A stretch of DNA of 64,000 nt from the NCBI GenBank assembly GCA_965226465.1, contig OZ245362.1, forward strand, positions 769,931 to 833,930, written 5' to 3'. Below the pieces are notes generated by a model. The model was not told the origin of the DNA. It did not search any database and saw only the letters and a list, made by a program, of their open reading frames with translations. Both the position numbers and the translations under genes were made by a program. Shown here piece after piece: positions 39,414-63,238 of this stretch. Positions within the stretch are counted from its first letter, which is position 1, and every line of letters starts with the position of its first letter. The stretch comes from Parvibaculaceae bacterium. GTDB lineage: Bacteria; Pseudomonadota; Alphaproteobacteria; RS24; CBDDDD01.

Positions 39414-40904
39414 ATGTTAGCTATGGTTCATGGATTTTTACAATGGTTATCGGTTATGTTTGTGACCGTGATAGGTCTTTTCAGCCTATGGATAGTGATA
39501 CTCTACATCACGGATAGGGTTCAGACCAAGCAGGCAATACGCCGAAACTATCCTGTTATCGGACGCCTACGCTACCAATTTGAAAAATTAGGCGAATATT
39601 TTCGGCAATATTTCTTTGCCATGGATAGGGAAGAGCTACCCTTTAACCGCGCCCAACGCAGCTGGGCATATCGGGCGGCAAAGGGTGTTGATACGACGAT
39701 TGCCTTTGGCTCCACACGGTCGCTTCGGATACCGGGCGAGTTTTATTTTGTGAACTGCCCCTTCCCCACCCTTGATGACCAGATGACAAAAACCGCCGCC
39801 ATCACTTTGGGCGAAGGCACAAAGCACCCCTATAAGACCGCCTCCCTATTTAACATTTCTGGCATGAGTTTCGGAGCGATAAGCAAGCCGGCGATTATAG
39901 CCCTCTCCAATGGCGCACGCATGGCGGGCTGTTGGATGAATACGGGCGAGGGCGGCTTATCCATTTATCATTTGGAGGGCGGCGCCGATATTATCTTTCA
40001 GATAGGCACGGCAAAATATGGCGTTCGCAAAAAAGACGGCTCACTGGATGACAAAAAGCTGAAAAAAATTGCCGAACACAAGCAGGTAAAAATGTTTGAG
40101 GTTAAGCTGAGCCAAGGCGCAAAGCCCGGCAAAGGCGGCATCTTGCCCGGCGGCAAAGTAACCAAAGAGATTGCCGAGACACGAGGCATAGAGATAGGCG
40201 AGGATAGCATAAGCCCCAACCGCCACCCCGAGATTGATAACATTGACGAGATATTGGATTTTGTGAACCATGTCCGCAAAGTCACAGGAAAGCCAACCGG
40301 CTTCAAAGCGGTAATAGGCGCCTATGGCTGGCTGGATAGCCTCTTCACCGAAATAAATAAAAGAGGCGTGGAATCTGCCCCCGACTTCATCACCATTGAC
40401 AGCGCCGATGGCGGCACGGGAGCCGCCCCTGCAGCATTAATGGATTATGTAGGGCTTCCCCTCTCCGAAAGCCTCCCCATGCTGGTAGATAAGGTGCATG
40501 AATATAAACTGCACCCCCGCATAAGAATTATCGCCAGCGGCAAGCTCATAACGCCGGCTGATGTTGCATGGGCATATTCAGCGGGCGCCGATTTTGTGAA
40601 CTCGGCACGAGGCTTCATGTTTGCACTTGGCTGTATTCAGGCATTGCAATGCAATAAAAACACCTGCCCCACAGGAATTACCACCCATGATAAAAGACTA
40701 CAAAGAGGGCTAAATCCCAAAAACAAGGCAGAGCGTGTCCGCAAATATGCCACAAGAATCACAGAGGAAGTAGAAGTAATCGCCCATAGTTGCGGTGCTT
40801 CAGACCCCCGCAAGCTAAGGCGTTACCATGTCCGCATTGTCACCGAAAACACCCGCTCCGTCGCCATGAGCGACATCTGGCCTGAGCTTCGGGCAAAAGG
40901 CTAA
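39414..40904 (+). CDS. FMN-binding glutamate synthase family protein (GltB domain-2-like, N-terminal TM anchor)
   Basis: 496 aa with an N-terminal TM helix and the GltS FMN-domain blocks ([54 protein letters not shown]). Confidence 0.85.
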
Positions 40905-41344
40905 CAGCCCTTTTTACAAATATAATGGTCAAGGGATATTTTCCCCCCACCCCTTGCGGCACAATAGAGCAAAGCGGCTGCCCAAAACAGATGAATATTC
41001 CACGCACCCGGATAAACAAATATTTGTATGGTAGCCGTCATCAAAAGTAGCACCACGGCAGAGAGCCTCGTCGCCAATCCCAAAATAAGCAGTATAGAGA
41101 ATATATGCTCAGCATAAGTCGCCATAAAAGCAGCTAAAGGTGCAGGAATAAGGGGCAGTGCATATTCGTTTTCAAATAAGACATAGGTCGTATCCGTAAT
41201 GGATAAAAACCCCTCAACCTTTGTGCGGGCAGAATAGAAAAACACCAGCGCAACCCCAATGCGCAAACTAAGCGCAATAAACCATTCGGGTATAGACTGT
41301 AATTTGGCTTGCGCCTTACAGGCATATTGTTTGAGCATATCCAT
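40901..41344 (-). CDS. DoxX family membrane protein (BufD-like)
   Basis: 147 aa with 4 TM helices in a DoxX pattern ([15 protein letters not shown]...). It is the last gene of the DUF2282 operon. Confidence 0.75.
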
Positions 41345-41355
41345 AATCTTCTCCT

Positions 41356-42075
41356 TTATGATTCGGCTACAGGGATAAGGCTAGCATTTGCAAGAAGCCC
41401 TTGCAAAATTATCTCTTTCTGCTCGCTTTCCTGCAAATGAGTTTCTGCCTTTTCCAATGGCATATTTTGCGAAAGGGCATGCAGAAAATAATAGCTTTGC
41501 GGGGTAAGAATACGCATCTCCACCTCATCGTTGCTTCGCAATAAGAGGATATATTCATCGCCCTCCCCCAGCTCTATCTCATCAGGCTCCTCCTCCTGCT
41601 GATGGGCAAGCCATACGGAGCTTAGGGCAAATTTCAAATGCAAAAATTGAGCAGAGGGGTGAAAAAGAAAACGGCTACGCGGCGAATATTGCGAAGAGGC
41701 GGACATAATATCATGGTCTTTGGCATGATAACAGGCAAGCCAAGCAAGCTCAAAACGTGCCATATCAGGAAGATAGGGAAGCTGTTTTGCAGGCGGAAAC
41801 CTTTCAAGAAAGCGGTCAAAGCCCTCCCCAAACCCGATAAGGCTCGCCTTGTTAGGAGGGTGCTGGCGAATAAATATGCTCGCCATTGCCGCAAAAAACT
41901 CATCCCCCACCAACGCCTTTACCACCGGTACCGCCTCGCCCAATGCCTCAATCAGACTATGCATAACATTATTGCGATAAACCTTTATCCCCGCCTCACA
42001 AGAAGCAGGGCTTTCTTCCGCAAGCAATATCTCCGCCATTTCCTTTTGCAATTCGGAAAGCTTTTTCCCGCTCAT
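41356..42075 (-). CDS. bufC: DUF2063 domain protein (BufC-like RiPP partner protein)
   Basis: 239 aa. The N-terminus [10 protein letters not shown]...[45 protein letters not shown] is typical of DUF2063. It overlaps the DUF692 gene by 4 nt. Confidence 0.75.
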
Positions 42076-42926
42076 GCCCTCACCCCCCCATTCAGGGTGT
42101 TATCCATAATGGATTGCGCCTTTTCCGCCTCCCCCAATAAAACGCTAAGGGGCGGAAAGTCCTTATCCCACTCAATCAATATCGGCAAAGCCCGCTTTGC
42201 CTGCTGCAGGGCAAAAGCAAAAAGCTGCCAAACCTCCTCACAGATAAGCGCATTATGAGTATCAATTCTAAGCTTCCCATCCACACTATGCCCCGCCAGA
42301 TGAACCTCGCCAACATGCGCCCAATCCAGCTCCTTAATATATGTTTTCGCACAAAGCCCAAGATTTTCAGAGGAGACAAAAATATTATTAACATCCACCA
42401 AAAGCCCACACCCGGTATGGCGGCAAAGCCTATTTAGAAACTCGGCTTCGCTCATCTCGCTCGGCAAAGCAAGATAGGAGGAAGGGTTCTCCACCAAAAT
42501 CTGCCGCCCAAGAAACTCCTGCACCTGGCTAATATGAGCAGAGCAAACCCCAAGCGCTTCCTCCAAAAAAGGCACAGGCAATAAATCATTAAAATACGTA
42601 CCCCCATAAGCACACCAAGCAAGATGGTCAGAAACCAAAGAGGGCTGATATTCGTCAATAAGCTGTTTCAGCGATAGGAGATGCTCCTTGCGCAAAGGCT
42701 CAGCCCCGCCCAAAGAAAGCCCAACACCATGCATGGATATGGGCATAATCTCTCTAATTTTTTTCAAGAATTTATGAGGCGGACCGCCCTCCCCCATATA
42801 ATTTTCAGGATGGATCTCCCCCCATGCGACCCCCATTTCTCCCTGACAGATTTGCGGAATATGAGGCGAGCGCAAACCAATCCCCGCTTTTGGGGGGATT
42901 GGCTCACCGCTTGCGATAACTGGCAA
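42072..42926 (-). CDS. bufB: DUF692 / MNIO (MbnB-like multinuclear non-heme iron oxidase) family protein (BufB-like)
   Basis: 284 aa with GIGLRSPH, WGEIHPENYM, SMHGVGLSLGG, VSDHLAW, NDLLPVPF, ILVENPSSY, GCGLLVDVNNIFVS and EVHLAGH, which is the DUF692 block order. Confidence 0.85.
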   Translation of the reverse strand: MPVIASGEPIPPKAGIGLRSPHIPQICQGEMGVAWGEIHPENYMGEGGPPHKFLKKIREIMPISMHGVGLSLGGAEPLRKEHLLSLKQLIDEYQPSLVSDHLAWCAYGGTYFNDLLPVPFLEEALGVCSAHISQVQEFLGRQILVENPSSYLALPSEMSEAEFLNRLCRHTGCGLLVDVNNIFVSSENLGLCAKTYIKELDWAHVGEVHLAGHSVDGKLRIDTHNALICEEVWQLFAFALQQAKRALPILIEWDKDFPPLSVLLGEAEKAQSIMDNTLNGGVRA

Positions 42927-42931
42927 GGAGA

Positions 42932-43237
42932 TTAAGGACGCTTAACGGGCTTCAGGCTACCCCGTCCATGGGGTGTTTTCATTTTTTTGCATGTTCCCTT
43001 AGGCACATATTTCCAGGCATTGCCTTGATAATCCACTTTGGACGTTCCGGCACAGCTTGTTCCGGGACCTGCGGCGCATTGGTTTTGCCCTTTAAGAGCC
43101 ACGCCATAGCATCTTTCTTTAGCGCCGCTGGATTTTTTCTTCCAGAAAAAGGCATCTGCCGACGAACTACCCATAATGGCATATGCCCCGATTGCGGCGA
43201 CAACAATGCCGGCACTTGTGAGATATGATTTCTTCAT
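42932..43237 (-). CDS. bufA: DUF2282 Cys-rich signal-peptide precursor (bufferin BufA1-like)
   Basis: 101 aa with AGGAGA 8 nt upstream. The signal peptide is [29 protein letters not shown]. The core [43 protein letters not shown] contains 4 Cys. Confidence 0.85.
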
Positions 43238-43330
43238 CCTGTTATTCTCCTTATCATGATTACATTTATACTATTTCCATATAAGAGCATGTTTTTTGGT
43301 TTTATGATAGGCAAAATCGCTTTTTGTTTT

Positions 43331-43347
43331 GGTCAGCAATACTGACC
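43331..43347. promoter_or_regulatory. inverted repeat GGTCAG-N5-CTGACC in the bufA/gltB divergent intergenic region
   Basis: Read directly. It is followed by TTTTT on the plus strand, but no plus-strand gene ends upstream, so an operator is more likely than a terminator. Confidence 0.35.
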
Positions 43348-43432
43348 TTTTTACTTGCAAGCGGGTATATATTCTGTCATCCTATAGCGCGTCCTGATTA
43401 AGGGCGGGGAAGTTTGGAAAAAGGATAAATGG

Positions 43433-46400
43433 GTGCCGGATAAGAGCAAACGCTATGGTTTTCTGCCCAGTGGCGGATTATATGAGCCCTCTCGCGAGCA
43501 TGATAGCTGCGGGATAGGCTTCATCGCCCATATGAAAGGCGAGAAGAGCCATAGCATTATTCAGGACGGCATAGAGATTTTGCGAAGTCTGGAGCATAGG
43601 GGAGCGGTAGGTGCCGACCCCAAAGCGGGCGATGGTGCGGGTTTACTATTACAAATGCCGGACAAGTTTTTGCGTAAGGCTTGCGACAAGCAAGGTTTTT
43701 CTCTTCCCAAAGAGGGTGAATATGGTTGCGGAATATTTTTTCTCCCCCGTGATAAAAAAGCCCTTTATGCGATTAATGAGATTATCACAAAAAGCATAAA
43801 AGATGAGGGGCATAAGCTCATTGGCTGGCGCGATGTGGCGATAGATAATAGCTCTCTTGGCGAAAGCGTCAAAGCAAGCGAGCCCTTTTCCAGCATGATA
43901 TTCATAGAAAACGGCAAAAAGGAGCTAGACCAGAACGGCTTTGAACGCTCCCTTTTTGTCATAAGGCGCGTCATAGAAAACAAGCTCGCACAAGCAGATA
44001 TTCCTTATACAGACAAATTTTTCCATATCAATTCTCTCTCCTCCCGCATCCTCCTCTATAAAGGCATGCTGCTCTCCGCCCAATTGGATAGCTATTTCTT
44101 AGACTTACAAGATAAGGATATGGTCAGTGCGCTCGCTTTGGTGCATCAGCGTTTTTCCACCAATACTTTTCCAAGCTGGAAGCTGGCACAACCCTTCCGC
44201 ATGATTTGCCATAATGGCGAGATAAACACCTTACGGGGCAATATTAACTGGATGGCAGCCCGCCATGCGACCCTAAAATCCCCCCTTTTTGGCGAAGATA
44301 TAGAAAAACTATGGCCCCTCATCCAAGAAGGTCAATCCGATAGCGCCTGCTTTGACAATGCCCTGGAGCTCCTTGTGCAAGGCGGCTATCCGCTAGCCCA
44401 TGCGATGATGTTATTAATCCCAGAGGCATGGGAGGACAACCCGATAATGAGCAAGGAGCTTATCGCTTTTTATGAGCACCATGCCGCATTAATGGAGCCA
44501 TGGGACGGACCAGCAGCCATCGCCTTTACCAATGGCAGGCAGATAGGAGCGACACTGGATAGAAACGGCTTGCGCCCCGCCCGCTACTACATCACCAAAG
44601 AGGATAAGATTATTCTGGCAAGCGAGGCAGGCACCCTTCCCGTCAAGGAGGAAGATGTCATCCATAAATGGCGCCTCCAACCCGGCAAAATGCTATTAAT
44701 TGACCTAGAGCAAGGACGCCTCATTCAGGATAAGGAGATAAAAGCCGAGCTTTCCAAAGCCCGCCCCTATCGCCAATGGCTGGAAAAAGGACAAATACGG
44801 GTGCTAGACCTCCCCGAAGTAGAACACGAACCCCATATTTCCTCCGCCAGCCTATTGGACCGACAGCAAGCCTTTGGCTATAGCGAGGAGGACATTAAAT
44901 TCCTACTAAGCCCCATGGCGGAAAACGGCGAAGAGGCAACCGGCTCAATGGGCACCGACACCCCGCTCCCCGCCCTATCCGATAAGGGAAAACTCTTATA
45001 TTACTATTTCAAACAAAACTTCGCACAAGTAACCAACCCCCCCATAGACCCGATAAGGGAGGAGCTGGTAATGTCGCTAGTATCCCTCATCGGACCCCGC
45101 CCCAATCTGCTGGATAGAGAACACGGACCCGACCTAAAACGCCTTGAGCTAACCCAACCCATCATCACCCCTCGCGGCATTGAAAAAATCCGCAATATCG
45201 GACAACGCAAAGACACCCATTTTGACACCGAAACTCTGGACAGCACATGGGACGCCCAAAGCGGTTTCAAAGGCTTAATAAGCCGCATGGAAGCCCTATA
45301 TCAGCAGTCAGAAAAAGCCATTGCCAATGGCAAGAATATTCTCATCATTTCCGACCGTGCCCTATGCAAAGAGCGCATTGCCATCCCCGCCCTTCTCGCA
45401 ACAGCAGGGCTACACCACCACTTAATCAGAAAGGGGCTGCGCACCTCCGTAGGGCTTGTCGTAGAAACAGGCGAGGCAAGAGAGGTGCACCACATAGCCT
45501 GCCTTGCCGGCTATGGAGCGGAGGGGATTAACCCCTATCTCGCCTTTGAAACCCTGAGCCAATATTACGACCCTTTGGAGTCCGAGAAAAACTATATCAA
45601 AGCCGTCGGCAAGGGCTTGCGCAAAGTCATGTCAAAAATGGGCATCAGCACCTATCAATCCTATTGCGGGGCGCAAATATTTGACGCCGTCGGCTTGAAG
45701 CAAAGCTTTATTGACCAATATTTCACAGGCACCCACAGCAAGATAGAGGGCGTAGGGCTGGAGGAAATTGCCCACGAGACCATAGCCCGCCACAAGCGCG
45801 CCTTTGGCGATGATGAAGTTTTGCGCGAGGCGCTGCCCATTGGCGGCGAATATGCCTATCGGATACGAGGCGAGCAACACGCATGGAATAGCGACACCGT
45901 GCGCAATTTACAGCACAGCGTGAGGAGCAATAGCCAAGAAGATTATGATAATTTTTCAACAGCGATTAATAAACAAGACGAATCCCTATTGACCTTACGC
46001 GGATTATTCCGCCTCAAAAAAGCAAAAAAGCCAATTGACCTCGCAAAAGTTGAAAAAGCAGAGGAGATTGTAAAACGTTTCTCAACAGGTGCCATGAGCT
46101 TTGGCTCCATCAGCAGAGAAGCCCACACAACACTGGCAATAGCGATGAACAGGATAGGCGGGCGCTCCAATACGGGCGAGGGCGGCGAGCAATCCGACCG
46201 CTTCCGCCCCCTTGCCAATGGCGACAGCATGCGCTCTTCCATTAAGCAGATTGCCTCTGGACGCTTTGGGGTAACGGCAGAATATTTAGTCAATTCGGAT
46301 ATGATACAGATTAAAATGGCACAAGGTGCCAAGCCCGGCGAGGGCGGACAATTACCCGGTCACAAAGTAGATGAGACCATCGCCAAAACCCGCCATTCCA

Positions 46401-48019
46401 CACCAGGTGTTGGGCTAATATCCCCGCCCCCCCATCATGATATTTACTCCATTGAGGATTTAGCCCAGCTTATTTTTGACCTTAAAAACGTCCAACCCGA
46501 AGCGGCAATAAGCGTGAAGCTGGTATCGGAAATAGGCGTTGGCACGGTGGCGGCAGGCGTTGCCAAAGCCAGAGCCGACCATGTGACCATTTCGGGCTTT
46601 GAGGGCGGCACGGGAGCAAGCCCGCTCACCTCCATCAAACATGCAGGCTCCCCATGGGAGATAGGGCTTGCCGAAACCCACCAAACTTTGGTGCTAAACA
46701 AGCTCAGAACAAGAATAAGAGTGCAGGTGGACGGCGGCTTACGAACAGGGCGCGATGTCATTATCGGTGCGCTTTTGGGCGCCGATGAGTTTGGTTTTGC
46801 CACCGCCCCCCTCATCGCCACAGGCTGCATCATGATGAGAAAATGCCATTTAAACACCTGCCCTGTCGGCATTGCCACCCAGAACGAGGTTTTACGAAAG
46901 CGTTTCACAGGCACGCCTGAGCATGTGATAAATTATTTCTTTTTTGTCGCCGAAGAAACCCGAAAAATTATGGCGGAGCTTGGCATAGCCCGCTTTGATG
47001 ATTTAATCGGGCAGAGCAATTTGCTGGATACAAAAAAAGCCATAGACCACGCCAAAGCTTCTGGCTTAGATTTCAGCAAGCTTTTTGAAAAAATGGACAG
47101 CAAAGGCGAGCCCTCCCATCAATGCAAAGCACAGGAGCACCCCATTTTTGATATTCTGGATAGGGTGCTTATCAAAGCCGCAAAACCCGCTCTGGAAAAG
47201 AAAAAAGCCGTAACCATAGAGAGTAAAATAAACAATCAAAACCGAAGCACAGGCACCATGCTATCAGGCGAGCTTGCCAAGCGTCACGGTCATGAAGGCT
47301 TGTCGGAGGATATGATAAGCGTGCGCTTTGAAGGAACAGCAGGGCAAAGCTTTGGCGCCTTTCTAGCAAAAGGCATAAGTTTCATGCTGGAGGGCGAGGC
47401 AAATGATTATGTCGGCAAAGGTCTATCGGGGGGAAGAATTTCCGTCACCCCCCCAAAAAACAGCCAGCTCATTCCGGAGGAAAATATCATTATCGGCAAT
47501 ACGGTTTTATATGGGGCGGTATCGGGCGAGTGCTATTTCAGAGGCATTGCGGGCGAGCGTTTTGCGGTCAGAAATTCGGGCGCAATAGCCGTGATAGAGG
47601 GAACAGGCGACCATTGCTGCGAATATATGACAGGCGGCATTATTGCCGTATTGGGGCGCACAGGGCGCAATTTCGCCGCTGGCATGTCGGGCGGCATTGC
47701 CTATGTTTTTGACGAGGATGGCGGTTTTACCAAAAAATGCAATCAAAGCATGGTGCGCCTATTGGAGATAAAGCATGATATGGGCAACCACCTCACCCGC
47801 CTTGATGAGCATATGAACCAATATGATAGCGAGCGCCTATATAAGCTTATTGAGCGACATAATCATTATACGAACTCTGCACGCGGCAAAGCGATTTTGG
47901 AAGATTGGGAAAATAATTTGAAAAAGTTTATCAAAGTCATGCCCAAAGAATATGAGCGCGTTTTGGAGCAGGATATGAAAAAGAAACCCCTCTCCCAAGC
48001 CCAAGAAGCAAGGGGGTAG
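43433..48019 (+). CDS. gltB: glutamate synthase large subunit
   Basis: 1528 aa with a GTG start. It has an N-terminal amidotransferase domain ([10 protein letters not shown]), an FMN domain ([16 protein letters not shown]) and a C-terminal GXGXG domain. Confidence 0.95.
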
Positions 48020-49440
48020 TGATGGGAAAGATAACAGGATTTCTAGAAAAAGACCGCAAGGAAAGAAAATATTTACCCATAGAAAAGCGGGTCAAAAACC
48101 ACAAGGAGTTTATACTCCCCTTGACCGACAAGGACATCAACGCCCAAGCCGCCCGCTGCATGGATTGCGGCATCCCCTATTGCCATAATGGCTGCCCCGT
48201 CAATAACCAGATACCAGATTGGAACGATCTCGTATATAAAAATGACTGGCAAGAAGCCTCCCGCAATTTACACTCCACCAATAATTTCCCCGAATTTACA
48301 GGGCGCATTTGCCCCGCCCCCTGCGAGGCAAGCTGCACCCTAAACCTGATTGACAGCCCCGTCACCATTAAGACCATTGAATGTGCGATTGTAGATAGAG
48401 CCTGGCAGGAAGGCTGGATTACCCCCCAAATCACAAGTAAAAAAACAGGAAAACGCATTGCCATTATCGGTGCCGGTCCCGCAGGTCTTGCCGCCGCCCA
48501 GCAATTAGCGCGTGCTGGTCACGAGGTGCATGTCTATGAAAAAAACGCCAAAGCAGGCGGTCTATTGCGCTATGGCATACCCGATTTCAAAATGGAAAAA
48601 CAGCTCATAGATAAACGCATTGAACAGATGGAGCAGGAAGGCGTTATTTTTCATTATACGCACCATATTGGCGTCAATTGCAAAACAAGCGACATCATAA
48701 AAGACAAACATGCGGTTTTGCTAACAGGCGGGGCGGAGCACCCGCGCGATTTACCGATAAAAGGCAGGGAGCTGGACGGCGTGCATTTTGCGATGGACTT
48801 CCTCACCCAGCAAAACAGGCGCAATAGCAAAGAGGCAGTTGGGACGAGTGCAGAGATTTTGGCAAAAGGAAAACATGTAGTCGTGATAGGCGGCGGCGAC
48901 ACAGGCTCAGACTGCATCGGCACCTCAAACCGGCAAGGAGCAGCCTCCGTCACCCAATTAGAGATTATGCCCATGCCCCCCGAAAAGGAAAACAAGGCGC
49001 TCACCTGGCCCGACTGGCCGCTAAAGCTTCGCACCTCCTCCAGTCAGGAAGAAGGCGCAAAGCGTGATTTTTCGGTAATGACCAAACGCTTTCTTGGCGA
49101 AAACGGAAAACTTACGGGTCTGGAATGCATAAAGCTCAATGAAAAAATGGAGGAGATAGCCAACAGCAATTTCACCATAAAAGCCGAGCTAGCTCTATTG
49201 GCAATGGGCTTCACCCACCCCGTGCATGAAGGGCTATTAAAAGACTTAAAGCTCACCCTCACCGATAGAGGCAATATAGATGCCAATGTCAAAGATTACC
49301 AAAGCTCGCAGAAAAAAATATTTGCGGCGGGCGATATAAGAAGAGGGCAAAGCCTGGTCGTCTGGGCGATAAGGGAAGGCAGACAAGCCGCCCACTCTAT
49401 AGATAAATGGCTCACGGGCAGTAGCAATCTCTCCGCCTAA
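48019..49440 (+). CDS. gltD: glutamate synthase small subunit
   Basis: 473 aa with Fe-S Cys clusters ([19 protein letters not shown]) and the FAD/NAD Rossmann motif ([14 protein letters not shown]). The start overlaps the gltB stop. Confidence 0.95.
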
Positions 49441-54057: not shown

Positions 54058-55016
54058 TGTCAAAAAACAGGATATTGGAAAGAGGACGCCTCACCCTTGC
54101 TATGGAGCAAAAGGGCTTGGCGGAATTGGAAAAAACTCTTGGTACTGACTTTGTCAAAGCCGTTGAGCTTATTTTTTCCATGAAGGGGCGCGTTATCATT
54201 TCGGGCATGGGCAAGAGCGGTCATATTGGGCGCAAAATTGCCGCAAGTCTGGCATCCACAGGAACACCCGCACAATTTGTCCACCCTGCCGAAGCAAGTC
54301 ATGGCGATTTGGGCATGATAAGGGAGGAGGATGCCATTATTGCGCTCAGCTGGTCGGGCGAGACCCCTGAGCTTTCCGATATTATTGCCTATGGGCGGCG
54401 TTTTTCCATCCCCCTCATTGCGATTACCTCCCAAAAAGACAGCGCACTTGGCAAGGCGGCAAGTATTATCCTTCCCCTTCCCAAAGCCGAAGAAGCATGC
54501 CCCCACAAAATTGCCCCCACCACCTCAACGACAATGCAGCTTGCCATGGGCGATGCGATAAGCATGGCGCTTATGGAAAAAAGGGGTTTTTCACCGAGCA
54601 ATTTCCGCGCCTTCCACCCGGGCGGCAAGCTGGGCGCCAGCCTTTCCTATGTTTGCGACATCATGCATAAGGGCGAGCATATCCCCCTCATGGACGAGCA
54701 TAATACGATGGATAAAGCCTTGCTGACCATCACCGAAAAAGGCTTTGGCTGTCTTGGCATAACGGACGCAAAAGGCACCCTTTGCGGCATTATCACCGAT
54801 GGCGATTTGCGCCGTGCCATGGGCGAGGGATTGCTGGAGAAACAGGCAAAGGCGGTCATGACCAAAAACCCCAAAACCATCGCCCCCAATGCACTGGCAA
54901 GCTCCGCCCTGCTCACCATGCAGGAAAATGAAATACAAGGTCTTTTCGTAACCGAGAACAAGAAGCCAATAGGCTTTCTGCACATGCTGGATTTATTACG
55001 AATTGGCGTGGCTTAG
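54057..55016 (+). CDS. kpsF: KpsF/GutQ-family arabinose-5-phosphate isomerase
   Basis: 319 aa with a SIS domain (VIISGMGKSGHIGRKIAASLASTG) plus two CBS domains. Confidence 0.9.
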   Translation: MSKNRILERGRLTLAMEQKGLAELEKTLGTDFVKAVELIFSMKGRVIISGMGKSGHIGRKIAASLASTGTPAQFVHPAEASHGDLGMIREEDAIIALSWSGETPELSDIIAYGRRFSIPLIAITSQKDSALGKAASIILPLPKAEEACPHKIAPTTSTTMQLAMGDAISMALMEKRGFSPSNFRAFHPGGKLGASLSYVCDIMHKGEHIPLMDEHNTMDKALLTITEKGFGCLGITDAKGTLCGIITDGDLRRAMGEGLLEKQAKAVMTKNPKTIAPNALASSALLTMQENEIQGLFVTENKKPIGFLHMLDLLRIGVA

Positions 55017-55573
55017 ACAAGCTCACAAGCAATCCCCGTACCGCTCAAGCTACAATACCCATCAGGATTTTTCGCCAAATATTGCTGATGATAGCCCTCA
55101 GCATAATAAAAAACAGGCGCCTTTGTAATCTCCGTAGTAATCCCCCCAAACCCCTTTGCGCTTAGCATATCCTGAACCATATCCTTTGAGGAAAGCGCAA
55201 AAGCCAACTCTTCCTCTTCATAAAGATAAAGCCCAGAGCGATATTGCGAGCCGACATCATTACCCTGCCTCATGCCCTGAGTAGGGTCATGATTTTCCCA
55301 AAACAAAGCAAGCAAAGCAGCAAATGATATTTTCTCAGGATAATACACCACCCGCACCACTTCCGCATGCCCACTACCCCCTGCACAAACCTGCTCATAA
55401 GAAGGGTTCTCCCTTGCACCCCCCGCATATCCAACATGCGTAGAATACACCCCCGCCTCTTTCCAAAACAACCGCTCCACCCCCCAAAAGCACCCCATCG
55501 CACAAACCATCATCTTACACGCTTTAGGAAAAGGCGGCTGAAGCGGCGTATGGAGAACAAAATGCTGGCTCAT
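55013..55573 (-). CDS. msrA: peptide-methionine (S)-S-oxide reductase
   Basis: 186 aa with the GCFWG active site, GHAEVV and YHQQYL. Confidence 0.95.
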   Translation of the reverse strand: MSQHFVLHTPLQPPFPKACKMMVCAMGCFWGVERLFWKEAGVYSTHVGYAGGARENPSYEQVCAGGSGHAEVVRVVYYPEKISFAALLALFWENHDPTQGMRQGNDVGSQYRSGLYLYEEEELAFALSSKDMVQDMLSAKGFGGITTEITKAPVFYYAEGYHQQYLAKNPDGYCSLSGTGIACELV

Positions 55574-56313
55574 ATCGCCTCAATCGGACCCTCTCTTGAG
55601 GCGGAAAGAAGCTGCTGCAAATAGGGATTAGGGTCGCTTTCTGCTTTTTTTGCAGGACCATGCCAGCGCAATATCCCATCATGGAGAACGGCAATCTCAT
55701 CATAAAACTCCGAGAGGCGTGCCATCACCGATGTCACCACCAATATTGCCGCCCCGCTATCACGGGCAAGGCGGGCGATAAGACGATTGACGCGGGTGGT
55801 AGAAACAGGGTCAAGCCCGGCGGTGGGATTATCCAATAAAAGATATTTCGGCTTTGTTGAAATAGCGCGCGCCAACCCAACCCGCTTCTGCATACCGCCC
55901 GAAAGCTCGGCGGGCGAAAGCGAAGCAATACGCTCCTCCAGCCCAACCGCCTCCAAAAGCGAGCAAGCATGCTGGTGCGCCTCCTTATGCCCCATGCCCT
56001 TATAGATCTGGCGAAAAGAAATATTCTGCCAAACAGGCAGGCTATCAAAAAGAGCATTATGCTGAAAAAGCATCCCTATCTCATCTCGGATAGCAACAGG
56101 ACGCTTCAGTGTCACAGGCTGAATAGCACCATCAATAAGAATATCCCCCCTTTGCGGCTTAGTCAGCCCACAAAAACTTTTCAACAATAGCGACTTCCCC
56201 GCCGCTGTCGGACCAATAAGTGCCATAGACCGCCCCTTTTGCAAAGAAATATTGATATTATGAAGAGCCGCAAGCGCACCAAAATTAAGGCTGATATTTC
56301 TGGCTTCCATCAT
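55570..56313 (-). CDS. ABC transporter ATP-binding protein, MlaF-like, no cognate permease adjacent
   Basis: 247 aa with Walker A GPTAAGKS, signature LSGGMQKRVGLARA and Walker B YLLLDNPTAGLD. Confidence 0.8.
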   Translation of the reverse strand: MMEARNISLNFGALAALHNINISLQKGRSMALIGPTAAGKSLLLKSFCGLTKPQRGDILIDGAIQPVTLKRPVAIRDEIGMLFQHNALFDSLPVWQNISFRQIYKGMGHKEAHQHACSLLEAVGLEERIASLSPAELSGGMQKRVGLARAISTKPKYLLLDNPTAGLDPVSTTRVNRLIARLARDSGAAILVVTSVMARLSEFYDEIAVLHDGILRWHGPAKKAESDPNPYLQQLLSASREGPIEAI

Positions 56314-56319
56314 AGCTTT

Positions 56320-57102
56320 TCACCCTTTCCTCTCAAGGCGTTTCCACGGCAACACATATTTTGCGCCCTCATATTGGATATGGCGCACCTCAATGCCATA
56401 GGCGCGCGCCATATTTTCTTTTGATAATACCTTATCGGGCGGACCATAGGCAATAGCCTCGCCCCCATGGAGGAGCAGAACCTTATCGCAAAAGCGTGCC
56501 GCCAGCGAAACATCATGCAAAATAACGATAACGATATTGCCGCCCCCCGCCCGCTTTTTGAGAAGCAGCATGGTTTCCAATTGGCGCGCCGGGTCAAGCG
56601 AAGCACATGGCTCATCGGCAAGAATAATATCCGCCTGCACCGCAAGCATGCGCGCCATCAGCGTTGCCGCTTTTTCACCGGCAGAGATTTTGGAAGCCTG
56701 CCTACCCCATAAATGCGATATAGAAGCCTCCGCCATCGCTTCCCTCACGGCGTGCTCATTTTCATATTGGCGATGGGGCAGCCTTCCCAGAGCAATAAGC
56801 CGCTCCACCCGCATAGGCCAATATATTTCATGCCCCTGCCCAAGCCATGCGATATTTCTGGCACGCTCAAGGCGACCATACTGCGAAAGCGGTTTCTCGT
56901 TCAGCATAATCTCACCGGCACAAGGAGTGATAATACCCGCAAGCGCCCGCAAAAAGGTCGTTTTACCCGCCCCATTAGGACCCAATATGGCAACAAGCTC
57001 TCCAGAGCGAAACTCCGCCGAAAGCCCATTGACAGCGCATTTCTCCCCAAACCGCACCGATAGCTTTTCAACAATAAGCCTATTTCCCTTCACCACTTCC
57101 AC
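56320..57102 (-). CDS. iron-chelate/heme/B12-type ABC transporter ATP-binding protein (FecE/HmuV-like)
   Basis: 260 aa with Walker A GPNGAGKTT, signature ISAGEKAATLMARML and Walker B ILADEPCASLD. Confidence 0.85.
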   Translation of the reverse strand: MEVVKGNRLIVEKLSVRFGEKCAVNGLSAEFRSGELVAILGPNGAGKTTFLRALAGIITPCAGEIMLNEKPLSQYGRLERARNIAWLGQGHEIYWPMRVERLIALGRLPHRQYENEHAVREAMAEASISHLWGRQASKISAGEKAATLMARMLAVQADIILADEPCASLDPARQLETMLLLKKRAGGGNIVIVILHDVSLAARFCDKVLLLHGGEAIAYGPPDKVLSKENMARAYGIEVRHIQYEGAKYVLPWKRLERKG

Positions 57103-58892
57103 TCCAATCCGATATAAATCTCTCTCCCCGCCTGACGAAACCCCTTAGCCGTTTGATAATCCGCATCAAACAGATTTTCCACCCGCGCAAATCCATGCAA
57201 CGCCCCCTTAAGGGGTATACGCATATACGCCGAAAATAAAGCACTATCATCCAGCCTGCCACCACCCAAAGCAGGAATATAATCTCTCGCCCTCAATGTC
57301 AGCCCAAATTGTTTTTCGCTCGCCGTCCTATAGTCCAGCGAAACCCCCGCCCTATGTCTAGCACGGCGGATAAGAGGCTTATGAGTAGCGTCCCGAATAT
57401 CAAGATAGCTATAAAACAGGGAGGCAGAAAAAGCGTCCGATATCTCCCATTCTGCCGATATTTCCGCCCCCTTTGAAACCGTTGTCCCCGCAATTTGCTG
57501 ATACTGCCCCTGAAAGTTTCCTATGGAAACCCACTCTATCAGGCTATCAATCTCTATCCGAAACAACTCTATTGTCACCATGAAAGGCAAAGCAGACGGA
57601 CTGAGGCGCAAAGCAATTTCCACACTATCGCTCTGCTCAGGCTCAAGCTGCACATTACCATATTGGGGATCATAAAGCTCGCTCAAGCTCGGCGAGCGCA
57701 ACCCCGTTGCCAGCGAGCCCCTTATATGAACGCTTTCCTTTATCGGCATATTCCAAGAGGCTTGCCAATTTTGACTGGAAGCAAAGCCCCCTTTTTGGTC
57801 ACCCCGCCAAGCAAGACTTATCCCCCCCTTTTGCCAAAACAGCCATAACGCCTTATTTTCTGCGCTTTTTGCAAAAAAATCATTAGCTGTTTTGGAGGAG
57901 ATTTCTTCCCCCTCCCAACTTGCCCCAAAAAGCAGCTTGCCCTCTCTCGGCGATGCCCTACCCTGATATTCCACCCTTTGACGGCTACCCTCCGTGCGGA
58001 CAGAAAACGCAAATTTTGAAAAATGACTTGCCTCCTCCCTTATATCCATAATACTAAGCTCATGGGAAACATCATTCTGTATAAAGAGCATATTAGCACG
58101 CAAAGCAGAATACTGAACACGGCTAAACTCACCCGCCAAATCAGCAGGCATAAAATCGCTCCCATAGCCATCATAATCCACCCTATTTCTCCCCGCCAAT
58201 ACAACAAGCCCCATTTCAAGTCCAGGTGCCAGCGAGCGTTGCACCCGAGCATTCACATTACCATTATGATATCCGTCCTTTTCCTGAGATGGCACAATAT
58301 CCAAAGCAGAAAACCCCTTTGTCTGATAAAACCCCGCCCCCAAACCATAGGCAATATCACCCCGCTCCCCTTGCAGCGAAAGCCTGCTATTCTGCGTTGC
58401 AAAGCTCCCCCTCTCATGAGAAAACTGCCCGCTCCCCTCCCCCCCAATGGCACTATGAGCATGGATAGCCCCGCCAATGGTTTCGCTACCATACAGCACC
58501 CCCTCCGAGCCTTTGACAATCTCAATATGAGAAAGCCCGCCCGCCGCCAAATGAGAAAAAGCCGCCTGCTGGCTATAAGGATTATTGAGAATAATCCCAT
58601 CATATAAGAGCTTCACATATTTACTCCCCAGCCCCCGCAAATATATATCCGAAAACGTCCCCTTACCGCCGCTTTGATAAAAATCCGCAACCCCCGTCTT
58701 GGTCAAAACATCCTGCAAAAAGCTGACCTGATAGCCCTCCATCTCCTCTTTGGTAATCACAATCGCACCATAAGGATTATCCAAAGCAGGACTTGGCAGC
58801 TTATCGCCCAATACAATAATCTCCTCACGCTCGCCAGCATAAATCGGCTGAGAGATACAAAACAGCAAAGAAAAAATAATGCCCCTCATCAT
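57090..58892 (-). CDS. TonB-dependent receptor, BtuB-like size class
   Basis: 600 aa with a signal peptide, a plug domain (VSFLQDVLTKTGVADFYQSGGKGTFSDIYLRGLGSKYVKLLYDGIILN) and the C-terminal beta-barrel terminus ...IYIGLEWKW. Confidence 0.9.
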   Translation of the reverse strand: MMRGIIFSLLFCISQPIYAGEREEIIVLGDKLPSPALDNPYGAIVITKEEMEGYQVSFLQDVLTKTGVADFYQSGGKGTFSDIYLRGLGSKYVKLLYDGIILNNPYSQQAAFSHLAAGGLSHIEIVKGSEGVLYGSETIGGAIHAHSAIGGEGSGQFSHERGSFATQNSRLSLQGERGDIAYGLGAGFYQTKGFSALDIVPSQEKDGYHNGNVNARVQRSLAPGLEMGLVVLAGRNRVDYDGYGSDFMPADLAGEFSRVQYSALRANMLFIQNDVSHELSIMDIREEASHFSKFAFSVRTEGSRQRVEYQGRASPREGKLLFGASWEGEEISSKTANDFFAKSAENKALWLFWQKGGISLAWRGDQKGGFASSQNWQASWNMPIKESVHIRGSLATGLRSPSLSELYDPQYGNVQLEPEQSDSVEIALRLSPSALPFMVTIELFRIEIDSLIEWVSIGNFQGQYQQIAGTTVSKGAEISAEWEISDAFSASLFYSYLDIRDATHKPLIRRARHRAGVSLDYRTASEKQFGLTLRARDYIPALGGGRLDDSALFSAYMRIPLKGALHGFARVENLFDADYQTAKGFRQAGREIYIGLEWKW

Positions 58893-59893
58893 GAGCGGTG
58901 CATATGAGAGATAAGAAATAAAAACACAGGCACACCCAAAAGAGCGGTCAATACGCCAAGCTTAATCTCACCGCCCGCACTTGGTATGATGCGCACGATA
59001 CTATCCGCCAGCCCCACCAATATTGCGCCCAGCATTGCCGATGGCAAAAGGGTTTTTGAAGGCTCATGGTCAACAAAATGGCGCACCATATGAGGCACGA
59101 TAAGCCCGACAAAGCCAACCACGCCCGAGACAGAAACCGCAGCCCCCACCGCCAAAGCAATCCCCAAAGCAATTTGCAAATATAAGGCTTGTATATTGAC
59201 CCCCATTGAGAGCGCCACTTCATCACCCAGCGCAAGAGCGTCCAATCCCCGCCCACAAAAAAGCAGAATGACACCGCCCGCCATGATTAACGGCAAAGCA
59301 AGCACAACATGCTGCATGGAGCTATCCTCCACCGAGCCAAGCAGCCAAAAAGCAATTTCCAACGCCGCAAAAGGGTTCGGCGCAAGATTGAGCAGCAGCG
59401 ATATGCCCGCCCCCGCAAAAGCACTAATGGCAAAGCCGGCAAGAATTATCCTCAAATTGCTTGCCATGCGCCCCGAAAGAATCAGCAAAAGCCATACCGA
59501 TAAAAACGCCCCCAATGCAGCGATAATCGGCACAATATGCGAAAACTGACTGGCAATGCCAAAATAAATCATCGCCACCGCCCCCAATGCAGCAACATTG
59601 GAAGCCCCCAAAAGAGAAGGCTCCGCCAAGGGATTTCGCAATAATGCCTGTATGGCAGCCCCCGAAATACCAAGCGCCGCCCCAATAGCAAGGGCTAAAA
59701 TGAGGCGCGGCAGGCGAATATCAAAAAAGATAATCTTGGCAAACTCCGACCCCCGCCCCGATAATAAAGCCGACAAATCAAAAAGCCCAAGCCCCGCCTG
59801 CCCAACGCCAATGGAGAGCAAAGCCGTAATGGCGAGCAAAAAGAATAATAGGGCATATAAAATAAAGCGCGGGCGCATATAAGCAGATTGCAT
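58889..59893 (-). CDS. FecCD-family ABC transporter permease
   Basis: 334 aa with about 9-10 TM helices and FecCD blocks (RLPRLILALAIGAALGISGAAIQALLRNPLAEPSLLG, GEIKLGVLTALLGVPVFLFL). Confidence 0.9.
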   Translation of the reverse strand: MQSAYMRPRFILYALLFFLLAITALLSIGVGQAGLGLFDLSALLSGRGSEFAKIIFFDIRLPRLILALAIGAALGISGAAIQALLRNPLAEPSLLGASNVAALGAVAMIYFGIASQFSHIVPIIAALGAFLSVWLLLILSGRMASNLRIILAGFAISAFAGAGISLLLNLAPNPFAALEIAFWLLGSVEDSSMQHVVLALPLIMAGGVILLFCGRGLDALALGDEVALSMGVNIQALYLQIALGIALAVGAAVSVSGVVGFVGLIVPHMVRHFVDHEPSKTLLPSAMLGAILVGLADSIVRIIPSAGGEIKLGVLTALLGVPVFLFLISHMHRS

Positions 59894-59934
59894 TGGGCAA
59901 AAAGTGAATGCAAGATGAAAGATAGGAGGAAGGC

Positions 59935-60741
59935 GTGAAATATTTTTCTTTTATCTATTGCCTATTTTTTCTGCTTTTGGGAACAGAGGCTTCCGGTGAG
60001 CGTCCGAAAATTGTAAGCGCGAGCCTTTGCGGTGACGCCTATCTGCTTGCGCTCAATGCCGATGAGCAGATAATTGCGCTCAGCCATTTATCAAAAAACA
60101 CCGAGCTATCCATGATTGCCGATAGGGCGCAAGGTTTTGCGACCACCAGCGGCTCGGCGGAGCATATCCTATCGCTTGCCCCCGATATTGTGATAGCCCA
60201 CAGCTTCACGCCGCCGCACCGCTTGGAGATATTGCGGCGGGCGGGCATAAAACTGGTCGTGATAGAGGCAAGCCGCAATATGGCGCAGATGGAAGAGGAG
60301 GCAATGGCAATCGGCAACGCCATAGAACGCACCCAAGAGGCAAAGAGCTGGCTCCACACCATGCAAAAGCGGATAAAACAATTGGAGCAGAAAAAAAGAA
60401 ACATCAGCATCATCCATTATCAAAGACGAGGGCTGGCAACGGGAAAGCTCAGCTATCTAAACGACCTCATGGAAAAAGCAGGGCTAACCAATCTCGGCGC
60501 CAAAAATGGCACGATAGAAAGACTTGGACTGGAGGCACTTATCCGCCTCTCCCCCGATTATATTCTCTTCACCAGCGCCCAAACCCCACCACAAGATAGA
60601 GGCGAAGCCCTACTGCACCACCCCGCCATTGAAAAACATTTCTCACAGGAACAAAGGATATATCTGCCAAGCTCCCTTTTTACCTGCGCCGGACCCTTTG
60701 CCGCCGAGGCATTGGAGCGGCTACAACAAGCTATAAAGTAG
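59935..60741 (+). CDS. periplasmic substrate-binding protein (BtuF/HmuT-like, Peripla_BP_2)
   Basis: 268 aa with a GTG start after AGGAGGA and a signal peptide. It is divergent from the permease gene. Confidence 0.8.
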   Translation: MKYFSFIYCLFFLLLGTEASGERPKIVSASLCGDAYLLALNADEQIIALSHLSKNTELSMIADRAQGFATTSGSAEHILSLAPDIVIAHSFTPPHRLEILRRAGIKLVVIEASRNMAQMEEEAMAIGNAIERTQEAKSWLHTMQKRIKQLEQKKRNISIIHYQRRGLATGKLSYLNDLMEKAGLTNLGAKNGTIERLGLEALIRLSPDYILFTSAQTPPQDRGEALLHHPAIEKHFSQEQRIYLPSSLFTCAGPFAAEALERLQQAIK

Positions 60742-61724: not shown

Positions 61725-62297
61725 ATGAATGATGAGAAGCAGTTTCACGAACAGGCAAGGCTCAGCGATGCAAGTCTTATGGATAGGATTGGGCGCGGCG
61801 ACAATTCCGCCTGCGAGGAGATTGTTGAACGCCACCTCCCCAATATCCTTGCCCTCGCCCGCTCTCGCATTGGCGACATGCATATGGCGGAGGATATCGC
61901 CCAAGAGGTTTTTCTCACCCTGTGGAAGCAGGCACATAAATGGAAGCCGGACGCACAGCTTTCCACATGGCTATACCGGGTCACAATTAATCGCAGCATT
62001 GACGAGCTCCGCAAAAAAAGACCGCTCCCCCTTGCAGAGGGTTATGACGCCATTGATGAGACGCCCGGCTCCTTTGAGCAAATGGCACATAAACAGCAAT
62101 GCCAAGCCTTACATAAGGCAATTTCAACCTTGCCGGAGCGACAAAGGGAGGTCATTGAGCTATGTTATTTAAGCGAGATGAAGCAGCAGGAAGCCGCAGA
62201 AATATTGGGCATAAGCCTAGAAAGCGTAGAAAGTGCGCTCCGCCGCGCCCGCCTTTCCTTATTGGAAAAAATGGAGAAACCCCATGATAGAGGATAA
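61725..62297 (+). CDS. ECF-type RNA polymerase sigma factor
   Basis: 190 aa with region 2 (AEDIAQEVFLTLWKQAHKW...STWLYRVTINRSIDELRK) and region 4 (LPERQREVIELCYLSEMKQQEAAEILGISLESVESALRRAR). Confidence 0.9.
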   Translation: MNDEKQFHEQARLSDASLMDRIGRGDNSACEEIVERHLPNILALARSRIGDMHMAEDIAQEVFLTLWKQAHKWKPDAQLSTWLYRVTINRSIDELRKKRPLPLAEGYDAIDETPGSFEQMAHKQQCQALHKAISTLPERQREVIELCYLSEMKQQEAAEILGISLESVESALRRARLSLLEKMEKPHDRG

Positions 62298-62595
62298 GCA
62301 CCATAAACAGATAGAAGCTCTGCTACAGCCCTTAAAGCAGAATGTTTCCCAAGAGCTAAAACACGCCATTTTAGCACCACAACAGCGCACCCATTTCGGC
62401 TCCCGCTTTCGCATCAGCATTGTAAGCGCTATGGCGGCATGTCTGGTATTGGGATTTTTCACCCCGGCTTTCTTTACCGAACACTCTTTCTCACCTGTGC
62501 CTTTGGAGCAGGTAGAAAGCCAGACATTGGAAAATGATGTCTGGCAGATAGCAAATAACCAAAATGAACTATGGAAGGAATGGCAAGATGAGTAA
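62284..62595 (+). CDS. putative anti-sigma factor, single-TM
   Basis: 103 aa from ATG 62284, which overlaps the sigma gene by 14 nt. It has one TM helix (ISIVSAMAACLVLGFFTPAFF). No zf-HC2 motif was seen, so the assignment is by position only. Confidence 0.5.
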   Translation: MIEDKHHKQIEALLQPLKQNVSQELKHAILAPQQRTHFGSRFRISIVSAMAACLVLGFFTPAFFTEHSFSPVPLEQVESQTLENDVWQIANNQNELWKEWQDE

Positions 62596-63238
62596 GAAAA
62601 CTATCACAATCGTAATTTCAGCACTGGTACTTTCACTGGGTCTGAATTTATTGTTTATCGGCAATAAAATAGGCAGCAGCCATATGCAGCATAAGAAAAA
62701 ATGGCATGCAAGTCAGGGCTATATGCATAAAAAAGACCATCAAAAAGGGCGTATGGAACATATGCGCGATGGCAAAAGAGGGGCAATGTCCCATAAGCGA
62801 AAAGGCGGCAAAGCCATGCCCCATAAAGGCAAAAAGGGCATGCATGCCGGCAGACAAAGCAATCCCATTGCAAGGCTCGTCCAAAGCCTGGAGCCGGAAA
62901 AGCGTGAGGAGATTAAAAGTGTGATAAAGCCTCAACATGAGCGCATGCGTGAATATAGCCGTAATTATTCGGAAGCACGCACCCGCATATTGGCGCTGTT
63001 AAAGGCAGAAAAGCTGGATATGACCGCTCTGCAAACCGAGCTTGAGGCGTTGAATGATCTGGAGACAAATCTCAGAGGCAATTTCTACATGATGGTTCTG
63101 GAGCTCTCCAACAGCCTTCCCGCCGATGCGCGCGGCAAGATTATCCGCCTATTGGATTTCAAGGCATCCCCCAAAGGGCAAGTCATGAAAGCAAAAAGAC
63201 AGGGTGAGAGAGGCAAAAAGAAGAAGTCTAATAACTAG
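62588..63238 (+). CDS. periplasmic heavy-metal-sensor/Spy-CpxP-like protein with His/Met/Lys-rich N-terminal region
   Basis: 216 aa from ATG 62588, which overlaps the previous gene (ATGAGTAA). It has an N-terminal signal/anchor. The segment HMQHKKKWHASQGYMHKKDHQKGRMEHMRDGKRGAMSHKRKGGKAMPHKGKKGMHAG is followed by a helical region (RILALLKAEKLDMTALQTELEAL) typical of Metal_resist/LTXXQ-type proteins. Confidence 0.65.
   Translation: MSKKTITIVISALVLSLGLNLLFIGNKIGSSHMQHKKKWHASQGYMHKKDHQKGRMEHMRDGKRGAMSHKRKGGKAMPHKGKKGMHAGRQSNPIARLVQSLEPEKREEIKSVIKPQHERMREYSRNYSEARTRILALLKAEKLDMTALQTELEALNDLETNLRGNFYMMVLELSNSLPADARGKIIRLLDFKASPKGQVMKAKRQGERGKKKKSNN

Follow-up and report, generated by a model that had tools for sequence, protein, structure and literature searches.

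Does the four-gene unit on the minus strand at 40901-43237 of the stretch analyzed here, a 64,000-nucleotide segment of contig OZ245362.1 of a Parvibaculaceae bacterium (hereafter the window), encode a working bufferin system, and if so, of which type and with what peculiarities? A first reading of the letters (hereafter the original prediction) had proposed a complete bufferin-type operon for a peptide made by ribosomes and modified after translation (RiPP), with the architecture of the Caulobacter buf1ABCD and Cupriavidus gig operons. Here, family models, homology, cysteine spacing, and gene order were found to agree on precisely this architecture and, judging from these sequence comparisons, we consider that this locus, bufABCD, is very probably a working operon for the biosynthesis of a Buf1-type bufferin (the class is also termed captophorin, and the operon gig). 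The operon shows the Buf1 features that could be fully tested here, namely gene content, gene order, protein families, conserved residues, and Cys register, and its genes are under purifying selection. Its precursor, on the other hand, carries an unusual charge and an unusual residue, which raises the further question of whether the product works as other bufferins do.

Family assignment and integrity of the four genes

The four open reading frames (ORFs) lie where the original prediction had placed them and form a single unit on the minus strand:

42932-43237, minus strand: bufA, Buf1/DUF2282 bufferin precursor of 101 residues (Pfam PF10048, Caulobacter-like Cys spacing)
43151-43237, minus strand: predicted Sec signal peptide of BufA, residues 1-29 (heuristic pattern)
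42935-43150, minus strand: predicted mature peptide of 72 residues (predicted cleavage after Ala29)
42072-42926, minus strand: bufB, MNIO (DUF692) iron-dependent oxidase of 284 residues with a TTG start (Pfam, NCBIfam MNIO_BufB)
41356-42075, minus strand: bufC, DUF2063-domain partner (PME1/BufC) of 239 residues (Pfam DUF2063, BufC1 homology)
40901-41344, minus strand: bufD, DoxX-family membrane protein of 147 residues (Pfam DoxX, BufD1 homology)

When the four proteins were searched with profile hidden Markov models, a check that the original prediction had itself proposed, all of them scored above the Pfam gathering thresholds and far beyond chance. BufA matched DUF2282 (PF10048) over residues 40-93 with 91.4 bits against a cutoff of 22.4 (E=3.4e-26), BufB matched MbnB_TglH_ChrH (PF05114, DUF692) with 329.5 bits (E=1.7e-98), BufC matched DUF2063 over residues 8-90 with 75.5 bits against a cutoff of 27.2 (E=4e-21), and BufD matched DoxX with 57 bits (E=3.2e-15) and DoxD with 35.7 bits. 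Within the MNIO family, BufB exceeded the cutoff of the NCBIfam MNIO_BufB equivalog (344.3 vs. 310) and stayed well below those of the HvfB, ApyH, MbnB, and ChrH models, and is therefore specifically bufferin-type. The DUF692 sequence blocks that had been listed for this enzyme (GIGLR, HPEN, HGVGLSLGG, VSDHLAW, ENPSSY, DVNN, and HLAGH) are all present, and BufB keeps each of the 36 positions conserved at 97% or more among 85 BufB sequences, including H22, E37, H66, H101, E146, D178, H209, D222, H224, E252, and D254. All the strongly conserved His, Asp, Glu, and Asn residues of BufB are thus retained, as expected of an MNIO metal site. The best match of BufB in the PDB is 3BWW (E=1.4e-44); the BufA precursor has no match there.

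With regard to the precursor, the four-Cys core was recovered as first quoted, with CysI to CysIV at Cys43, Cys54, Cys62, and Cys83 in a C-x10-C-x7-C-x20-C spacing, a register shared by 121 of 121 close homologues. From species-representative genomes, a scan recovered 80 loci, among which a Caulobacter vibrioides metagenome-assembled genome (MAG) locus, L064, served as Buf1 reference; its BufA1 reproduces the published Buf1 numbering, with Cys12, Lys24, Ser30, Ala32, the Trp44-Lys48 strand, and a mature peptide of 68 residues (PMC11626156). Comparison of the precursor core with this characterized bufferin, also proposed at the outset, gave 59% identity between the mature peptides and the same Cys spacing. 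Overall, Cys spacing, gene order, and the strongly conserved BufB residues match those of the characterized Caulobacter Buf1 system.

The BufA N-terminus resembles the Sec-type signal peptide that had been announced for it: by rule of thumb, it comprises an MKK n-region, a hydrophobic segment at about residues 5-22, and an A-D-A motif at residues 27-29. The hydrophobic stretch proper, of only ~17 residues, gives way to Ser-rich and A-x-A motifs. The predicted cleavage site, between ADA and FF, falls at the position equivalent to the site experimentally cleaved in Caulobacter, and a second candidate site, between AYA and IMG, lies after residue 20. In an AlphaFold2 (AF2) model of the precursor, built from 114 aligned sequences, residues 40-44 and 75-79 come out as strands, where the sheet confirmed in Buf1 by nuclear magnetic resonance also lies; disorder is predicted for linker residues 22-37 and for the loop that holds the Cys, and the FFWKKK region has a predicted local distance difference test (pLDDT) score below 50.

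The integrity of the operon can be appreciated both from its layout and from its recent evolution. The junctions, read on the sequence, are those given by the original prediction: a 5-nt gap between bufA and bufB, a 4-nt ATGA overlap in which the ATG of bufC overlaps the stop codon of bufB, and an 11-nt gap between bufC and bufD. Strong Shine-Dalgarno sequences precede bufA (AAGGAG, at 43247-43252), bufC (GGTGAGG), and bufD (AAGGAG); bufB, which starts on a TTG 5 nt past the bufA stop codon, has none, and its translation is therefore probably coupled to that of bufA. No second bufferin or MNIO copy, nor a second copy of any buf gene, was found within the window, and the antisense ORFs across the operon have no Pfam matches. 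A 95%-identical copy of the precursor exists in the “Parvibaculales bacterium” MAG GCA_051010235.1 (hereafter the MAG relative), where the TTG start of bufB is likewise called and bufD is called two codons shorter. Relative to this copy, from which the operon is separated by a synonymous divergence (dS) of about 0.12-0.19, the ratio of nonsynonymous to synonymous substitution rates (dN/dS) is 0.15 overall, with 0.15 for bufA, 0.21 for bufB, 0.18 for bufC, and 0.06 for bufD, which indicates that all four genes are under purifying selection.

On this basis, a mode of action can be proposed, in which chemistry, export, copper binding, and regulation are carried over by homology from the Caulobacter vibrioides system (PMC11626156). 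There, BufB1 and BufC1 are necessary and sufficient for the formation of two thiooxazoles, DoxX being dispensable, and the Sec signal of Buf1 is functional and cleaved, with Cu bound in a 1:1 ratio (PMC11626156). Here, BufA would be translated as a 101-residue precursor, of which the iron-dependent MNIO BufB and its DUF2063 partner BufC would, in the cytoplasm, oxidize Cys54 and Cys62 (Cys25 and Cys33 of the mature peptide) into 5-thiooxazoles. The modified precursor would then be exported by Sec and cut by signal peptidase I, most likely after Ala29, and a Cys43-Cys83 disulfide would form in the periplasm. The folded 72-residue product may bind one Cu(I) or Cu(II) through a 2N/2S site made of the thiooxazole N and S atoms and thereby buffer periplasmic copper stress, protecting the cell from copper excess; BufD (DoxX) would be a conserved accessory membrane protein, unneeded for the modification. 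Under this scheme, the expected monoisotopic mass of the mature peptide would pass from 7786.99 Da when unmodified to 7776.92 Da with two thiooxazoles and one disulfide (-10.08 Da).

Charge and sequence peculiarities of the precursor

Two features of the precursor had been singled out as specific to this lineage: a Lys-rich stretch after the predicted cleavage site and a basic C-terminal tail. The latter did not survive comparison: 121 of 121 close homologues carry such a tail, TPxGxGSL followed by K(RP), and so do Caulobacter Buf1 and 40 of 119 diverse representatives. The motif is the mark of a large subfamily, from which the tail seen here departs only by its surplus of Lys/Arg. The former has to be divided, since FFWKKK is unique among about 300 sampled precursors when the SGAKE(K/R)C that comes next is common to relatives. 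The positions that do set this precursor apart are the following:

43133-43150, minus strand: FFWKKK codons, an aromatic and basic linker directly after the predicted cleavage site between ADA and FF (precursor comparison)
43079-43081, minus strand: codon of Gln53, the residue directly before CysII (Asp in the family)

The 14 residues before CysI bear a net charge of +4 and three aromatics, and the combination of three aromatics with a strongly positive linker was seen, among the roughly 300 sampled precursors, only in this one and in the MAG relative. Position 53 is occupied by Asp in 119 of 121 close homologues, 59 of 60 locus-derived precursors, and 114 of 119 diverse representatives, and within those three samples Gln53 was seen only in this precursor and its 95%-identical relative. 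As for charge, the mature peptide contains 16 Lys/Arg against 2 Asp/Glu, for a net charge of about +13.8 and an isoelectric point (pI) of 10.1, compared with a median of +3.4 for the family and, outside this lineage, no value higher than +7.8. Among 213 homologues it has the highest charge, as does the copy of the MAG relative among 60 locus-derived precursors. The excess is distributed along the peptide, with +4 in the linker, +3 in the core, and +7 in the tail.

Two explanations of this charge were tried and set aside. A bias of the whole proteome would be in line with the window median pI of 8.6, but per 100 residues BufB, BufC, and BufD are only about 1-2 charges away from the medians of their families and BufA about 14, a shift some 7-10 times larger than theirs. 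Electrostatic coevolution with the modifying proteins fares no better: BufB carries -4.6 charges per 100 residues (family -6.6) and BufC -6.3 (family -5.3), so that both are ordinarily acidic. BufB nevertheless has peculiarities of its own, since its Glu92 (codon 42651-42653) is an Arg in 86% of 83 relatives, a suggestive charge reversal also found in the MAG copy, and other departures from a majority of at least 80% occur at G36 (F in the majority), M61 (Y), L121 (T), D201 (P), and K244 (G). These departures, Glu92 included, may be linked to the cationic, Gln53-bearing substrate.

Regulation, surroundings, and competing interpretations

The original prediction had further stated that no metal-responsive regulator is adjacent to the operon. 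This holds for the flanking genes, gltB and an FMN (flavin mononucleotide)-binding gene of the glutamate-synthase family, but the window does contain, about 18.5 kb from the buf operon, an extracytoplasmic function (ECF) sigma factor and a Metal_resist protein at 61725-63238, which together form a candidate envelope or metal-stress module. The elements considered here with regard to regulation are:

43238-43432, between divergent genes: bufA-gltB intergenic region, presumed site of the buf promoter (sequence read, hairpin scan)
61725-62297, plus strand: ECF sigma factor of 190 residues
about 62284-62595, plus strand: small, overlapping, probable anti-sigma ORF with one transmembrane segment and no Pfam match
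within 61725-63238, plus strand: 224-residue protein with Pfam Metal_resist (PF13801) and a His/Met/Lys-rich stretch (HMQHKKKWHASQGYMHKKDHQKGRMEHM...)

As queries for regulators, we took the ECF sigma factor and NrsF that stand beside buf1 in L064, both confirmed with Pfam, and searched them against all ORFs of the window. Across the related loci, SigF and NrsF occur within 10 kb of the operon in only 4 of 80 cases, and the lack of an adjacent regulator is therefore normal. A promoter motif shared between the regions upstream of the sigma factor and of bufA was sought and rejected, as only low-complexity 7-mers and the Shine-Dalgarno sequence are common to both. In the intergenic region, Rfam returned nothing at gathering threshold, or at E<=1 beyond chance eukaryotic matches, and the 5' region folds only marginally better than its shuffles (z=-2.1). 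The hairpin scan of this region revealed a perfect palindrome, GGTCAG-N5-CTGACC, at 43331-43347, which is unchanged in the MAG relative although 9 of the 203 intergenic columns differ; on the plus strand it is followed by a T-run in a terminator-like manner, about 85 nt upstream of gltB, and may be either an operator or an element of the gltB leader.

Several observations weigh against the reading of this locus as a working, copper-buffering Buf1 operon. From the standpoint of regulation, the searches recovered neither NrsF nor a SigF-NrsF pair in the window, where the only ECF sigma factor is that of 61725-62297, and a consensus scan of the intergenic region found no convincing sigma-70 promoter for bufA; copper-responsive regulation is therefore unsupported. 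From the standpoint of export, the first 18 residues of the predicted mature BufA have a net charge of +4, with three Lys at +4 to +6. Such early Lys and positive charge are atypical for Sec substrates in Gram-negative bacteria, which makes both the export efficiency and the cleavage site of BufA uncertain. From the standpoint of the proteins themselves, the replacement of Asp53 by Gln removes a near-invariant residue beside a Cys predicted to be modified, a peptide of charge +14 should attract cations less well than typical bufferins, and the AF2 model of the precursor is of modest confidence (pLDDT 66). As for BufC, for which a C-terminal fold resembling a RiPP recognition element (RRE) would be expected, neither its sequence nor a 29-sequence profile matched the PDB, and a link to 3DEE was not demonstrable by sequence.

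These same peculiarities could be taken to mean that the operon is of Buf1 type but that the function of its product has shifted, toward a polycationic peptide held on anionic envelope surfaces (membrane phospholipids, lipopolysaccharide [LPS]) or with a preference for a different ligand, be it another metal or a metal complex of negative charge, and away from a soluble Cu buffer of the periplasm. The 213 homologues and the 60 locus-derived precursors show no charge more extreme than this one, which is spread over linker, core, and tail and is shifted in the precursor specifically and not in BufB, BufC, or BufD; Gln53 is unique in the samples; the MAG relative has kept these traits under purifying selection; and the BufB Glu92, where 86% of relatives have Arg, may accompany the changes of the precursor. 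Besides, the literature foresees bufferins that serve other metals, as well as Buf2 forms anchored to the membrane as lipoproteins (PMC12452194). However, nothing has changed in the four Cys and the distances between them, in the GPGTSCAGT loop, or in the conserved BufB residues, so that the metal site is probably the same, the proteome of the window is generally basic (median pI 8.6), and the linker is hypervariable across the family, a few representatives also having basic linkers. We regard such a shift of function, including the conjectured membrane association, as unlikely, albeit less so than the two other interpretations that the data bring to mind.

One of them is that, in a small genome (1.38 Mb for the source contig), the operon would be no more than a remnant, either silent or in decay, as the loss of the near-invariant Asp, the TTG start of bufB without a Shine-Dalgarno sequence, and the lack of a recognizable promoter or dedicated regulator beside the operon might suggest. 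Yet the four ORFs are intact, all conserved catalytic-type residues are retained, bufA, bufC, and bufD have strong Shine-Dalgarno sequences, and the TTG start and the synteny are kept in the MAG relative, with respect to which the overall dN/dS is 0.15 at a dS of about 0.12-0.19; moreover, an adjacent SigF/NrsF pair exists in only 4 of 80 related loci, which makes its lack here unremarkable. Decay is thus very improbable. Slightly less probable still is that the DUF2282 protein would be an uncleaved, membrane-anchored protein, in line with an old Pfam label (“predicted integral membrane protein”), and not a secreted RiPP precursor. Positive charges do stand on both sides of the hydrophobic segment (MKK before, KKK after) and the cleavage site was predicted by rule of thumb, but the brevity of the hydrophobic stretch and the Ser-rich and A-x-A motifs that follow are typical of cleavable signals, the signal of the characterized homologue is functional and cut at the equivalent site (PMC11626156), and the old label has been superseded by “BufA1”. 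A Buf1-type operon with the product function known from Caulobacter remains by far the reading that we favor.

The surroundings of this operon are as follows. It lies between gltB-gltD (43433-49440, plus strand; large and small subunits of glutamate synthase) and the gene for the 496-residue FMN-binding protein of the glutamate-synthase family (39414-40904, plus strand), the stop codon of which overlaps that of bufD in convergent orientation, an arrangement kept in the MAG relative (L001). At 55570-60741, a TonB-dependent receptor (57090-58892), a FecCD permease (58889-59893), a periplasmic binding protein (59935-60741), and two ABC ATPases (55570-57102) form what is apparently an uptake cluster of the iron, siderophore, or cobalamin type; a methionine sulfoxide reductase gene (55013-55573) adjoins it, and immediately downstream come a GntR regulator and the ECF module. 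On the whole, the proteins of the window are unusually basic, the 46 ORFs of at least 200 residues having a median pI of 8.6 and 35% of them a pI above 9, with a G+C content of about 48%. The basic proteome, the contig of 1.38 Mb, and the lack of a close species-representative relative suggest an alphaproteobacterial lineage that has been little sampled and is perhaps streamlined or associated with a host.

Place among bufferins and relation to known systems

As a kind, this operon is not novel: the family is huge, cataloged, and automatically annotated. The core bufferin cluster has been defined by precursor, MNIO, DUF2063, and DoxX genes (PMC12452194), and an MNIO is paired with a DUF2063-type partner (PME1) at over 24,000 loci, which occur in about half of the reference genomes of Pseudomonadota (bioRxiv 10.1101/2025.11.18.689057). 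BufA precursor homologues number at least 7,999 in the database, the A-B-C-D gene order is found in 65 of 81 related loci, most of the others being minor variants, and public records already include BufA, BufC, and BufD with identical sequences. In the MAG relative, the NCBI name of the precursor is “BufA1 family periplasmic bufferin-type metallophore”, and its neighbors are annotated as an “HvfC/BufC family peptide modification chaperone” and DoxX, with the same synteny and flanking genes. At a finer scale, relatives are scarce, for no close one was found among species-representative genomes, where the best BufB is about 50% identical, and the sole close relative is this single, fragmented “Parvibaculales bacterium” MAG.

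It follows that the operon adds little as a bufferin, the chemistry and role of the family having been established in 2024-2025, and that its interest is that of a natural variant. Its product is the most cationic Buf1 peptide of about 270 sampled, and in no other lineage among them was Gln seen in place of the near-invariant Asp beside a Cys predicted to be modified. It may hence be useful for investigating the role of this Asp and of charge in MNIO recognition, Sec export, and metal affinity, and also for asking whether some bufferins act at the membrane surface. If the function had indeed shifted, we would be dealing with a polycationic bufferin that works differently from known ones, for instance one that is membrane- or LPS-tethered or has a retuned ligand. 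Besides, the retention of the operon under purifying selection on an apparently small genome (1.38-Mb contig) fits the notion of bufferins as a core stress defense rather than an accessory trait.

Among systems that turn the Cys residues of a ribosomal peptide into a copper ligand is methanobactin (MbnA/MbnB/MbnC), which likewise employs an MNIO-family iron enzyme but differs by its oxazolone-thioamide chemistry, by its MbnC partner in place of DUF2063, and by its product, a secreted copper scavenger. A methanobactin assignment was accordingly rejected, with a score of 60.5 against a cutoff of 325 for the TIGR04159 MbnB model and with DUF2282, DUF2063, and DoxX as neighbors. Buf2 (BufA2, Buf_6/12Cys) shares with the present system the same enzymology, predicted fold family, and periplasmic copper-buffering role; its clusters, however, are usually devoid of DoxX, which the window operon has, and it was rejected because the NCBIfam Cu_RiPP_BufA2 model gives 21.5 against a cutoff of 60 and because the precursor has four Cys, not six or twelve. 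In the captophorins fontiphorin, oxazolin, and gonophorin, an MNIO and a DUF2063/RRE partner make 5-thiooxazoles on the Cys of a secreted Cu-binding peptide (bioRxiv 10.1101/2025.11.18.689057); the precursors of this class fall into three groups, one of which is DUF2282 (Gadgil et al. 2025, bioRxiv 10.1101/2025.11.18.689057). The characterized captophorins carry EGKCG-type Lys-Cys repeats, unlike the window precursor. An assignment to the oxazolin/Hvf type was rejected on the lack of any EGKCG repeat and on scores of 232.9 against 360 for HvfB, 48.9 against 142 for HvfC, and 48.4 against 80 for HvfX.

The nearest counterparts are found in operons of the same DUF2282/DUF692/DUF2063/DoxX architecture. 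To the gig (gold-induced genes) operon of Cupriavidus metallidurans and to the orthologues of Legionella and Bordetella, the present one can be likened by description (PMC11626156); these are regulated by metal stress or by BvgAS (PMC11626156). The closest parallel is that of Caulobacter vibrioides buf1ABCD (CCNA_03363-03366; Leprevost et al. 2024, PMC11626156), which consists of the same four genes in the same order, with identities to the window proteins of 44% for BufB1, 32% for BufC1 (residues 29-204, E=1e-30), and 68% for BufD1. Caulobacter Buf1 is likewise a DUF2282 protein with a TPxGxGSL C-terminal tail, it has a Sec signal such as is predicted for the window precursor, and its mature Cys12, Cys23, Cys31, and Cys52 fall in the register of Cys43, Cys54, Cys62, and Cys83 here. 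The two systems differ in that buf1 has an adjacent sigF-nrsF pair that the window operon lacks, in that the mature peptide measures 68 residues in Caulobacter against 72 here because of the FFWKKK-containing linker, in the motif before CysII (NDC in Caulobacter, NQC here), and in a net charge that goes from about +4 in Caulobacter Buf1 to about +14 in the peptide described here.

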